From Carcharhinus amblyrhynchos (lineage: Eukaryota): a DNA stretch of 64,000 bases. The translations under genes and the position numbers were made by a program. The first letter of the stretch is position 1. The number at the start of each line of letters is the position of its first letter. Below the pieces are notes generated by a model, which saw only the letters and a program-made list of their open reading frames with translations, ran no database searches and was not told the DNA's origin. Where the stretch lies: positions 32,302,001 to 32,366,000 of the forward strand of contig OZ336885.1 in the NCBI GenBank assembly GCA_965287045.1, given 5' to 3'. Positions 5,990 to 34,732 of the stretch are shown here, one piece after another.

Positions 5990-8900
5990 ACAGCACTGCT
6001 GAATGTGGAAAACTGTCCAGGCATATTCACCTCACAAAATGCAGGCCAAATCCAATCTGGCCAACATTCTACTCCTGATCATCAGCAAAGTAATGGAAAG
6101 AGTCATCAACGGTGATTTCAGGAGACATTTACACAGCAATAACCTGCTCACTGATACTCAGTTTGGGTGCTGCCAGGGCTAGTCAACTTCTAACTTCATT
6201 ACAGCCTTGGTTCAAACATGGACAAAAGAGCTGAACTCGAGAGGTGAGGTGAGTGTGATTGCCCTTGACATCAAGGCAGCATTTGACCGAGTGTGGTAAC
6301 AAGGGGCTCTAGAAAACAGAAGACAATGGGAATCAGAGGGAAAACTCTCCACTGGTTGGAGTTATACTTTGTAGAGTCATTGAGTTTTACAGCATGGAAG
6401 CGAGCCCTCTGGCCCAACTTGTCCACGTGGCCCCTTTGTTTAAAACCCCTAAGCTAATCCCAATTGACTGCATTTGGCCCAGATCCCTCAATACCCATCG
6501 TACCCATGTAACTATCAAAATGCTTTTTAAAAGACAAAATTGTATCTGCCTCTGCTACCACCTCTGGCAGCTTGTTCCAGACACTCACCACCCTCTGTAT
6601 GAAAAAATTGCTCCTCTGGACACTTTTGTATCTCTCCCCTCTCTCCTTAATCCTATGTCCTCCAGTTTTACACTCCCCTACATTTGGGAAAAGATATTGA
6701 CTATGTACCTTATCTATGCCCCTCATTATTTTATAGACCTCTATAAGGTCATCCCTCAGCCTCCTACACTCCAGAGAAAAAAGTCCCAGTCTATCCAGCC
6801 TCTCCTTATAACTCAATCCATCAAGTCCCGATAGCATCCTAATAAATCTTTTCTGCACTCTTTCTAGTTTAATAATATCCTTTCTATAACAGGGTGACCA
6901 GAACTGCACACAGTATTCCAAATGGCCTTACCAATGTCATTTACAACTTTAACAAGTTGTCCCAACTACTGTATTAATGTTCTGACCAATGAAATCAAGT
7001 ATGCTGAATGCCTTCCTCAACACTCTGTCCACCTGTGACTCCACTTTCAAGGGGCTATGAACATGTACCCCGAGATCTCTTTGTTCTTAACTCTCCCCAA
7101 CACCCTACCTTTAACTGAGTAAGTCCTCCCCTGGCTCAATCTACCAAAATACATCACCTTGCATTTGTCTAAATTAAACTCTATCTGCCATTCGTCAGCC
7201 CACTGGCCCAATTGATCAAGATCCCGCTGCAATTGGAGATAACTTTCTTCACTGTCCACTATGCCACCAATCTTGGTATCATCGGCAAACTTACTAACCA
7301 TGCCCCTATATTCTCATCCAAATCGTTAACATAAATGACAAATGACAGTGGACCCAGCACTGATCCCTGAGGCACACCGCTGGTCACAGGCCTCCAGTTT
7401 GAAAAACAACCATCTACAATCATCCTCTGGCTTCTGTCAAGAAGCCAATTTTGTATCCATTTAGATACTTCATCCTGGATTCCGAGAGATTTATCCTTAT
7501 GCAACTACCTACCATGTGGTAACTTGTCAAAGGCCTTGCTAAAATCCATGTACACAACATTAACTGCACTGTCCTCATCTACCTTCTTGGTTACCCCTTC
7601 AAAAAACTCAGCCAAATTTGCGAGACATGATTTCCAGTCACAATGCCAAGCTGACTGTCCCTAATCAGTCCTTGCATCTCTAAATGCCTGTCGCTCCGAT
7701 GTCTCAAAATATCTTCCAACAACGTACCCACCGCAGATGTGAGGCTCACTGACCTGTAGTTCCCAGGCTTTTCCCTGCAGCCCTTTTTAAACAAACGCAC
7801 AACATTTGCCACTCTCCAATCTTCAGGCACCTCACCCGTGACTATTGATGATTCAAATATCTCAGCTAGGGTATCTGCAATTTCCTCCCTAGCCTCCCAC
7901 AATGTTCTGGGCTACACTTCATTAGGTCCTCAGTTAAGCCCTTGATGCGCTTCAAGACTTCCAGCACCTCCTTCTCTGGAATACGCACACTCCTTAAGAC
8001 ATCACTATTTATTTCCCCAAGTTCCTTAACATCCATGCTTTGCTCAACAGTAAATACAGATGAGAAATATTCATTTAGGATCTCACCCATCTCTTGTGGA
8101 TTTTTAAGAGGCCCTACTCTCTCCCTTGTTATTCTTTTGTCCTTTATGTATTTTTAGAAGCTTTTTGGATTCTCCTTTGCCTTATCTGCCAAAACAATCT
8201 CATGTCCCCTTTTTGCCCTCCTGATTTCTCTCTTAAATCTACTCCTACTCCTACAATTGAAGATGGTTCCATTTCGGCCCCAGGACTTCCAGGTAGAGCC
8301 CTAGATCCAACTATCTTCAGCTGTTTCATCAATGACCTTCCTCCCACTGTATGGTCTGAAGTAGGAATGTTCACAGATGATTGCACAATGTTCGGCAGCA
8401 TTCGCAAATCCTCAGATACTGAAGCAGTCCCTGTCCATATGCAAAATCTAGACAAGATTCAGAATTGGGCTAATAAACAGCATTTAACATTTGCACCGCG
8501 CAAGTGCCAGACAATAACCATCTCCAACAAGAAAGAATCTATCCATCTCCCATTGTCATTCAATAGCATTACCATCACTGAATCCTCCACTATCAACATC
8601 CTGGGCCTTACAATTGATCAGAAACTGAACTGAACCAGTGTATAAATCTTGTCCCTACATTAGCAATCAGAGGTTGGGTTTTCTGTGGAGGGTAGACCAT
8701 TTCCCAACTCCGAAAGAATCTTCACCAACTATAAGGCACAAGTCAGTAGTGTGATGGAACACTCTGTCCTGGATGAGTGCAGCTCCAGCAATTCTCAAGG
8801 AGCTCCACACCATCCAAGACAAAGCAAACCTACTTGATTGGCACACCAACCAACTCTTTCAACATCCACTTTTTCCATCCCTGATGCACAGTGGAAACAG

Positions 8901-11899: not shown

Positions 11900-12778
11900 C
11901 TGATAGTTATCTCCAATTGCAACAGGATCTTGATCAATTGGACCAGTGGGCTGACGAATGGCAGATGGAGTTTAATTTAGACAAATGCAAGGTGATGCAT
12001 TTTGGTAGATTGAACCAGGGCAGACTTACTCAGTTAATGGTAGAGTGTTGGGGAGAGTTACAGAACAAAGAGATTTAGGGGTACATGTTCCTAGCTCCTT
12101 GAAAGTGGAGTCACAGGTGGACAGAGTGGTGAAGAACGCATTCGGCATGTTTGGTTTCATTGGTCAGAACATTGAATACAGGAGTTGGGATGTCTTGTTG
12201 AAGTTGTACAAGACATTGATAAGGCCACACTTGGAATACTGTGTGCAAATCTGGTCATCCTCTTATAGAAAGGATATTATTAAACTAGAAAGGGTGCAGA
12301 AAAGATTTACTAGGATGCTAATGGGACTTGATGGATTGAGTTATAAGGAGAGGTTGGATAGACTGGCATCTTTTTCTCTGGAGTGTAGGAAGCTGAGGGG
12401 TGACCTTATAGAGGTCTATAAAATAATGAGGAGCGTAGAAAAGGTAGATGGTCAATATCTTTTCCCAAAGGTAGGGGAGTCTAAAATTAGAGGGCATAGA
12501 TTTAAGGTGAGAGAGGAGGGATGCAAAAGTGTCCAGAGGGGCAACTTTTTCATACAGAGGGTGGTGGGTGGAACAAGCTGCCAGAGGTAGTAGTAGAGGC
12601 AGGAACAATTTTAGCTTTTAAAAAGCATTAGATAGTTACATGGGTACGATGAGCATAGAGTGAACTGGGCCAAATGCAGACAATTGGGATTAGCTTGGGG
12701 GTTTTAAACAAAAAAGGGTGGCGTGGACAAGTTGGGCCGAAGGGTCTGTTTCCATGCTGTAAACCTCTATGACTCTGA
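11900..12778 (+). mobile_element. 5'-truncated HER1/CR1 LINE, same subfamily as 6373-8250
   Basis: QQDLDQLDQWADEWQMEFNLDKCKVMHFG and RPHLEYCVQIWSSSYRKDIIKLERVQKRFTRML; 3' UTR ends CTCTATGACTCT. Confidence 0.95.
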
Positions 12779-14869: not shown

Positions 14870-16450
14870 AATCATAAAATGATAGAATAAATACAACACA
14901 TAAGAAGACCATTCATCCCACTGAGTCTACAAAAGCACCTTCAAAAAGCAATCCAGTTAGTCCTGTCCCTTTACCCCACATCATTCCAATGCACCTTCCA
15001 TCTTCAACCAATTCCCTTTAAAGGCTAAACCGGAAGTATTTCAACTACATTATCAAACAGTGCATTCCTAATGTTAACCATTTGTCCAAAATTGTTTTCT
15101 CTCATGTCACCTCTGTTTTTTTTCCCAAATCATCTTAAATCTGGTACATAACCTTGTAATGTGGAGATGCCGACGTTGGACTGGGGTAAACACAATAAGA
15201 AGTCCGACAACACCAGGTTTAAGTCGAACCGATTTATTTGATAGTAAACTCACCTCGAAAGCTTGTGAGTTTACTATCAAATAAATCGGTTGGACTTAAA
15301 CCTGGTGTTGTCTGACATAACCTTGTAACCATTGGAAACAGCTTATCTTCGTTTAGTTTACCTAAGCATTTCATTATTTTAACCACATCTAGTGTCTTAT
15401 GAACCTTGTCTTGACGTTAAATGCAAGGGTCCCAGAAGGGTAGCTTGGAACACCATTTCGCAGTGGTATCTGTGTTTTTTCTCACACCATGTGAAGAATG
15501 GTGTACAATCCAGTAAGGAAACAGTCCAGTCGTACAGTTGGGTTAAAATTAGATTTTTATATAGGTTCAGCATAATTTTCTGGCTTTTGTGCCCATATGC
15601 CTCAATCTATGATGCCTATGATCCCATTTGCCTTAAAAGCTTTGTTAAACTAGCTTCAATGATTTGTGCACTAAACATCCACAAGTCTCTCCCCTCCTGC
15701 ACTCTCTTTAAAACTGTCCACTGAACAAGATCTCCTGAGCTCATTATTCCTGCCTAGATATATCACTTCACATTTTCCTCCATTGATTTTATCTGCTGTC
15801 TGTCCACCCATCCAACAAGCCTATCTACGCCTTCTTGAAATCTATTCTTCACAGTTTATAACACTTCCAAATTTTGCTCCATCTGCAACTTTTGAAGTAG
15901 TGATCTGTACCCTCAGGTTCAAGTCATTAATGTTTATCAAAAACAGCAGTGGTGCTAGTACTGGTCCCTGGGGAACGCCACTTTACGCTTCGCTCCAGTT
16001 TGAAGAGCAGCCATTCATCGGGATTCTGTTAAATATCGCTCAGCCTATTTTGTAGCTATGATGCTGCTGTCCCTTTTATCCCATGAGCTGCAACTGTGGT
16101 ATTAAAACCTATTATGTGATATTTTATCAAGCGCTTTTTGAAGCAGCAACTGTACTGCCCTCATCCACCCTCTATGTTAAACCAATAAAAAACGCAATCA
16201 GGTTAGTCAAACACAATTTGCCCTGAACAAATCCATGCTGACTCCCTTTTATTAGTCCATACTTGTCCAAGTGATTTGTTAATTTTCTCCTAGATTATTG
16301 TTTCTAAAAGCTTTCCCATACTGATGTTAAGCTGACTGACCTGTAATTGCCAAGTTTATCCTTCTACTCTTCATTGAACAGGAGTGTAATAATAGCAATC
16401 CTCCAGCTCTTTGGCACCATCCTGGTATCGACATTGGAATATGGATTAAA
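14870..16450 (-). mobile_element. Old, heavily decayed CR1 LINE (RT to 3' end)
   Basis: Reverse complement contains GVPQGPVLAPLLFLININD-like and MVPKSWRIAIITLLF-like segments; TAGAATCA tail near 14870. Confidence 0.75.
15160..15314. mobile_element. Palindromic miniature Penelope-like insertion with a 14-bp target-site duplication
   Basis: Arms 15206-15253 and 15265-15312 are 47/48 complementary. Flanked by ACATAACCTTGTAA at 15146-15159 and 15315-15328. Starts with TGTGGAGATGCCGACGTTGGACTGGGGTAAACAC, which I recall as a shark Penelope-type terminus. Confidence 0.85.
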
Positions 16451-33819: not shown

Positions 33820-34020
33820 TGTTCAACATGCTGCTAATTGTAAATTAACTGTGTTTAATTGCATGTATGTGGCAGGCATTAATTAGGGATCTACTTATAC
33901 AGTGATTAATAGAAATTGACTGAAATTAGGGTTACTGGGTTAAGGGATATATGTTTTATAATGTGCGTCTCTAAATAAAATCACGTACAATTGGCTCCAA
34001 TTCGATCCTTTGTCACTGGT
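33820..34020 (+). mobile_element. Probable 5' LTR of the Copia element, interrupted near its 3' end
   Basis: Starts TGTT, contains AATAAA, and aligns with 61784-61985 (TGTTTAATTGCATGT..GGCATTAA..TGGGTTA..TGGCTCYAATTC.ATCCTT). The missing terminal segment appears to resume at ~34733 (CTGGGCTCTCTGGAAT). Confidence 0.6.
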
Positions 34021-34204
34021 GGTAGCAAAAATTTATTATCTGACAATAAGTTATACAGATTTGACCAAATCCACAACAATTAAACACAAACTTTCATAAT
34101 AATCTTCAACAGAGCAAGCGTCGTGTTTCAGTCTTTAGCTGCAGCTATTGGGTCGATCCTCACCGTCGGTTGCTCTTGCCAATGAGATGAAGTGAGGGCA
34201 ACAC

Positions 34205-34501
34205 TTATGGACGATGCTCATCATTGTCAATGGGGTGGTCTGGAGAAGTGCACTTGTTTACCTTCGTCAGTGTTTCCTTTTGAATCCCAATATCTTCCAG
34301 TCTCTTTCTCAATTGCTGGTGGTGCGAAGATTCATGAAAATCATCCATTTCCAGTTTACACTCCTTCATGTTTCTGATCTTCCTAATACCATGAGCACAT
34401 TCAATCCACTCCATCTCAAATACATGGCACACCCACTGGGTTGTACAAAACCATTTATCAATATTGATATCTGTCTTTTCCTGGAGATCAGTCAATGGCA
34501 T
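34205..34501 (-). pseudogene. NDUFS5: Intronless retrocopy of NADH:ubiquinone oxidoreductase subunit S5 (complex I 15-kDa subunit), open 98-aa ORF
   Basis: MPLTDLQEKTDINIDKW..CHVFEMEWIECAHGIRKIRNMKECKLEMDDFHES..KCTSPDHPIDNDEHRP* aligns end to end with recalled vertebrate NDUFS5 (MPFLDIQ..NIDRW..CHAFEKEWIECAHGIG..KECKIEYDDFVEC..KYTPPPHH..EPRP*). Net 8-aa deletion, 4th CX9C Cys changed to Ser, no intron; AATAAA at 34032-34037 on the minus strand. Confidence 0.9.
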
Positions 34502-34539
34502 GGTTCCCAAGCGTTTTCTGTCCTTGGCCAGCTCTCAGA

Positions 34540-34732
34540 GAGTATTGTGACCCTTTCGGTCAATTGGGCTGGAACACATGAATCCTGGAGCTGAGCACAG
34601 GTTTTCCTTGCCAGTTAGGAGTCGGGAATCATGGAGTTACAATAGCCTTTATATCACTCTCTCGGACATAACTACTTACCTTAATAAACCGTTCATTCGT
34701 TAATCACTTGCTGGTCATTGCAAGATACTATA
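34540..34732 (+). mobile_element. Probable Gypsy-type LTR fragment adjoining the 5' end of the NDUFS5 retrocopy
   Basis: Shares ATTGT..CCCTTT..TCAAT, CACATGA and AGCACAGG in the same order as the LTR at 59568-59779; AATAAACC lies about 45 nt before a TACTATA end. Confidence 0.45.

Follow-up and report, generated by a model that had tools for sequence, protein, structure and literature searches.

The 64-kb stretch of shark DNA analysed here (the window) carries an intronless copy of NDUFS5, the gene for a 15-kDa subunit of mitochondrial complex I, with a reading frame that is open from end to end, raising the question of whether it is a working retrogene or a dead copy that has kept its frame by chance. 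The frame lies on the reverse strand (34501-34205, 98 codons plus a TAA, with its ATG at 34501), contains no stop codon, has an A at position -3 relative to the ATG, and is followed 168 nt past the TAA by an AATAAA signal (34037-34032, reverse strand). The 98-residue product matches the Pfam family Ndufs5 (PF10200) with an E-value of 2.4e-23 and a score of 82.6 bits (cut-off 21.2), as well as 13 solved NDUFS5 sequences. A protein database search gave three candidates, among which the only NDUFS5 proteins were two from sharks, 62% and 58% identical to the product, and returned no record of the product itself; a literature search across titles and the beginnings of abstracts found no paper whose title concerns cysteine mutants of NDUFS5 or a retrocopy of it in sharks. 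The first CX9C motif is intact (C25-X9-C35) and the second is broken (C48-X9-S58), such that the product lacks the full set of four cysteines that characterises a twin CX9C protein. Alignment to the parent gene places codon 58 (TCT, serine; 34328..34330, reverse strand) at parent Cys66 (TGT), the fourth twin CX9C cysteine. A first-pass annotation, made from the letters alone, had reported the ORF, the A at -3, the AATAAA, the intronless state, the intact first motif and the C-X9-S second, all of which were borne out. On the opposite strand, 132 codons are stop-free (34196-34594, forward strand; 126 residues from an ATG), running through the retrocopy into the adjoining long terminal repeat (LTR); this frame has no Pfam match, and we regard it as a by-product of the coding strand opposite.

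Searching the window's own genome yielded both the parent gene and a set of sister copies. The parent, on contig C24, is intact, with three exons (exon 1 non-coding, the other two coding) separated by introns of 2126 and 640 nt, and encodes 106 residues with C33/C43/C56/C66. Its presence rules out the window copy as a sole or replacement NDUFS5 gene; the pseudogene reading of the first-pass annotation had been tied to this not being the only NDUFS5 in the genome, which is indeed the case. When aligned to the spliced parent, the window copy crosses without a gap both the exon 1/exon 2 junction (34504/34503, where the 2126-nt intron is missing) and the exon 2/exon 3 junction (34309..34310, where the parent's 640-nt GT-AG intron is missing). 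Upstream it includes the final ~22 nt of non-coding exon 1 (34504..34525), and downstream 3' UTR from parent exon 3 (34030..34204, all on the reverse strand) to just beyond the AATAAA, without a poly(A) tail. As both junctions are crossed unbroken and these untranslated stretches are included, the copy therefore derives from spliced mRNA. No A-run follows the AATAAA of the window copy, and the best flank repeat in a search for a target-site duplication is a 7-8-mer lying 30-40 nt away from the junctions; poly(A) tails and target-site duplications are marks that decay with age. The copy differs from the parent by about 21%, and its 3' UTR by 24% (43/176). In the coding part the differences at codon positions 1, 2 and 3 number 10, 21 and 22 of 91, the low count at position 1 being a point against neutrality, and changes are numerous in the C-terminal part of the product.

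The window copy is one of at least five NDUFS5 retrocopies in the genome, a lower bound that counts four others on contigs C2, C6, C13 and C16. An earlier argument that retrocopies should be uncommon in CR1-dominated genomes is therefore weak here, given at least five from NDUFS5 alone. The C6 copy (G000:C6:98127614 onward, L004:1501-1809, forward strand) contains a complete 102-residue ORF with a 12-nt in-frame deletion; its motif is broken despite the ORF (C56Y, alongside W40R) and its dN/dS ratio (omega) is 1.7. It retains about 35 nt of exon 1. The C2 copy (L002, G000:C2:100.05 Mb) lacks its start region and contains a stop, and both the C13 copy (L005, G000:C13:48.05 Mb) and the second C16 copy (L006, G000:C16:9.77 Mb) are 5'-truncated; on C2 and C13, remnants of an A-rich tail follow the AATAAA. 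Several states common to the retrocopies differ from the present-day parent, suggesting the copies likely record an older form of NDUFS5.

Relative to the parent, the window copy has lost a net 24 nt, as had been noted before; the accompanying claim that the frame was preserved does not hold, since two frameshifting deletions of 14 and 10 nt cancel. We scored the 21-nt interval separating Trp17 from Cys25 against the parent and the C2 and C6 copies. A 14-nt plus a 10-nt deletion scores +10.8 bits, compared with -12.3 for the best split into triplets and -26.1 for a single 24-nt gap, and one in-frame 24-nt deletion is rejected on this score. In shuffled sequence +10.8 bits was reached 19 times in 2000, while an unweighted match count does not make the deletion model significant, being reached in 72/200 shuffles against the parent and 57/200 against the C6 copy. 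Two deletions of lengths not divisible by three best account for the net loss, with the frame lost and then regained. Alignment and scoring place the 14-nt deletion near 34450-34448 and the 10-nt deletion immediately ahead of the codon for Cys25, leaving an out-of-frame 18-nt piece between them (34430..34447, reverse strand). Jointly the deletions remove parent residues 18-32 from the product, which is 8 residues shorter than the 106-residue parent, and about six residues within 18-24 (FCTTQWV), including an extra cysteine, Cys19, are out-of-frame sequence. Two separate deletions would imply an interval during which the frame was broken; it is also possible that both came from one complex event.

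Selection on the copy was assessed with a maximum-likelihood codon model fitted to a star tree of four sequences, namely the parent, the window copy and the C2 and C6 copies, masking parent codons 18-32 for the window copy and, for C2, the stop along with the first six codons; the C13 and second C16 copies were left out because they are partial. Omega is 0.216 for the parent, 0.88 for the window copy, 0.57 for C2 and 1.67 for C6. On this short sequence, for which power is limited, the value for the window copy does not differ from 1 (p=0.78) and does differ from the parent's 0.216 (p=0.0009), with a likelihood range of about 0.4-2.3; only the parent, the positive control, rejects an omega of 1 (p=0.001). 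The dN/dS comparison proposed at the outset thus gives a value near 1, and the purifying selection that marks a functional retrogene is not detected in the copy, although from the likelihood range there may have been mild or early constraint. Polarised counts are 9 synonymous to 24 non-synonymous changes in the copy (90 codons) and 13 to 11 in the parent (104 codons), and own-branch distances at codon positions 1+2 versus 3 are 0.134 versus 0.141 in the copy and 0.051 versus 0.160 in the parent. The own branch of the adjacent LTR is about 0.105.

The strongest point against pure chance is the low neutral survival of an ORF. We simulated neutral decay of the parent mRNA, counting as success an ATG and the native stop in frame and taking the indel rate from the five copies (13 indels, 4 triplet). 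With this rate, the ORF survives in 3.6-6.8% of cases at distances of 0.10-0.15 (3.6-5.3% at 0.12-0.15); given exactly two coding indels the figure is about 3-4%, and without indels 13-25%. These odds are tempered because the copy was chosen for its ORF, because the C6 frame was kept unconstrained, and because the VGP Phase I preprint finds coding potential retained in about 10-50% of retrocopies, with significant selection in only about 15-35% of these, making an open yet unconstrained frame common (PMC13320880). Low neutral odds would also fit a retrogene on which selection acted for a short time once it had inserted and was later relaxed, the first to die being that in organism A, one of the four other organisms compared below; the C6 copy too has kept its ORF, and omega down to about 0.4 is not rejected. 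We nevertheless consider this very unlikely. Distances at positions 1+2 and 3 are equal over the whole branch, the window copy was ascertained by its ORF, so that only one of the two other near-full-length copies counts as an independent survivor, and the cysteine had been lost and both deletions had occurred before the organisms compared diverged.

That last point comes from the orthologous locus, which the first-pass annotation had suggested checking in related sharks. We drew on six public runs from four coded organisms (A-D), containing 21-39% of sampled words, with contigs that extend into the flanks; the orthologue is disrupted in one of the four, open in two and open where covered in the remaining one. 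In organism A a single 1074-nt contig at a depth of 6.3 covers the whole stretch, and the ORF is broken by a TGG to TGA change at codon 32 (Trp32 to stop) and a 1-nt insertion after codon 39 (+1 frameshift). The ORF is open throughout in organism D and open in organism C, where it is pieced from two samples at depths of 3.6-9.6, and in organism B it is open across the 266/297 nt covered, with a contig gap at 34308-34338. The Ser58 codon is identical in the spanning contigs of A, C and D and lies outside B's own pieces, and the deletion sites show no indel in organisms A, B, C (run X4) or D. As no contig differs at Ser58 or carries an indel at the deletions, these lesions are older than the split. 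Over the five organisms 16/297 coding sites are variable (0.054), compared with 21/359 non-coding sites (0.058; Fisher p=0.87), and we found no extra conservation of the orthologues over the coding part versus the flanks. Synonymous changes make up 5/15 of the orthologue substitutions in sense codons (about 25% expected, p=0.31), or 5/11 without the A-only changes (about 25% expected, p=0.11), and the chance of zero nonsense changes in 15 substitutions is 53%, so with this small a number of changes open frames are to be expected. Organism A (run X1) has five coding changes of its own, including the stop and the insertion, which fall within 33 nt (34374-34406) in one contig only, and this cluster matches no aligned paralogue.

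Taken together, an omega near 1, two frameshift deletions, the C66S change and the broken locus in organism A argue that the copy is very probably a non-functional processed pseudogene of NDUFS5 with a reading frame open by chance, a reading that comes from sequence comparison. The main inference of the first-pass annotation, a pseudogene whose short ORF survived by chance, is supported by the neutral dN/dS and the disrupted orthologue. The copy has what is expected of a processed pseudogene, namely absent introns, an intact parent elsewhere, a neutral coding part and disabling lesions. In common with the processed pseudogenes described in the VGP preprint (PMC13320880), it crosses exon junctions ungapped, is distant from its parent and has a neutral dN/dS; it differs from them in that its frame has been restored by compensating deletions, in its position in the start of a solo LTR, and in being without a poly(A) tail or clear target-site duplication.

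The site of insertion bears on how the copy arose. Head to head with it, beginning 24 nt upstream of its ATG, is the main part of a high-copy LTR-like repeat of ~230 nt (34526..34732, forward strand), which is solo and, by alignment of copies, missing its first ~23 nt. A first look gave 270 candidates for this repeat, of which 40 were scored and matched, and 14 copies were aligned. A purine tract precedes 4/14 copies and a common primer-site-like stretch follows 3/14, both characteristic of LTR elements, and an integrase (rve) fragment adjoins one copy (E-value 1.9e-5, below the curated cut-off); these features suggest a putative LTR, solo at this locus. The copies are about 0.30 apart, and the family is old and abundant. 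Beyond the retrocopy's 3' end, a 7-nt motif (34019..34025, forward strand) likely represents the first bases of the same LTR, being identical to the LTR start in 3/14 copies and having one mismatch in 4 more (chance ~3e-4, a rough post hoc estimate), while at the 5' join exon 1 and the LTR share a short microhomology, seen by eye. A LINE reverse transcriptase likely pasted in a spliced NDUFS5 message: an older solo LTR would have been nicked within its first ~25 nt, and reverse transcription, primed at the poly(A), would have begun there; the 5' end of the cDNA would then have joined via the short microhomology with exon 1, and the poly(A) tail and a few LTR bases would have been lost later.

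Because the copy abuts an LTR, the mRNA might instead have been captured by an LTR retrotransposon through a template switch, a difference of origin only, with the copy dead either way. LTR-mediated retrocopies lie in sense orientation between two LTRs of one element. Here there is a single LTR, to which the copy runs antisense and at whose very start it sits, the LTR-start bases seem to sit on the far side of the copy, there is only one copy of the LTR in the window, and the four sister-copy loci have no match to this repeat, leaving such a capture exceedingly improbable.

The same LTR could be of consequence for expression. Reverse-strand promoter activity from so close to the ATG might today drive a divergent retrogene or a regulatory RNA, giving either an NDUFS5-like protein with a single disulfide or an RNA with an effect on the parent, as would be in keeping with the retained ATG with its A at -3, native stop and AATAAA and with the frame being open in C and D. 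However, the LTR is directed away from the copy, omega is near 1, the organism A orthologue is broken, the 3' UTR has drifted 24% from the parent and the orthologues show no added conservation, and we think it very unlikely that the copy is expressed in this way. No CpG island is present upstream (GC 0.41, CpG o/e 0.28), and no promoter would have been brought along with the copy. In a more specific version, the LTR-driven copy would make a shorter form of NDUFS5 that has a single native disulfide as well as the frameshift-born Cys19. This product would serve, in certain tissues, as a decoy in MIA40 import or the assembly of complex I, or as a modifier of either, and while some lineages of sharks would have it, others would have lost it; we hold this to be highly improbable.

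In the rest of the window, 68 of the 77 stop-free frames of at least 90 residues were scanned, of which 3 match RVT_1 and 65 match nothing; no host gene was found among those scanned, though short exons would escape such a scan. None of the RVT_1 matches exceeds 199 residues, a spot-check consistent with the earlier description of the surrounding transposons as broken. Two LINE 3' fragments (6373-7247 and 11902-12776) are inverted relative to one another, 88.5% identical over 881 nt and about 4.6 kb apart, and an imperfect palindrome of ~115 nt (15202-15316, 88% self-complementary) is possibly a miniature inverted-repeat element.

What a product of this copy could do, were one made, can be judged against NDUFS5 itself, a twin-CX9C substrate of MIA40/CHCHD4. 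A review covering the protein describes CX9C disulfides that stabilise a helix-turn-helix, import via the MIA pathway, and an N-terminal coil that contacts ND2, ND4L, ND6, NDUFC2, NDUFB5 and NDUFA3; in the related subunit NDUFB10, a Cys-to-Ser change blocks import (PMC8762328). The copy shares with functional NDUFS5 homology over its whole length, the inner Cys35/Cys48 pair and Cys25, and differs in the loss of the fourth cysteine, in having 8 residues fewer and in about six out-of-frame N-terminal residues. The compensating deletions would scramble and shorten the N-terminal coil, and any product would form the inner disulfide at most, with MIA40/CHCHD4 import or complex I assembly likely to fail. 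By analogy, a product missing both Cys66 and residues 18-32 of the parent would be unlikely to function as NDUFS5.

As a dead copy the locus would matter little beyond being a neutral marker common to at least five organisms. It illustrates that 98 open codons behind a favourable start context cannot be taken as evidence for a gene, since here two frameshifts cancel, and because its product passes the Pfam cut-off, automatic annotation may be misled by it. That one small gene has left five retrocopies shows that mRNA retroposition has been no rarity in the history of this genome, and if the window copy were after all expressed and translated, it would bear on complex I subunit variants.
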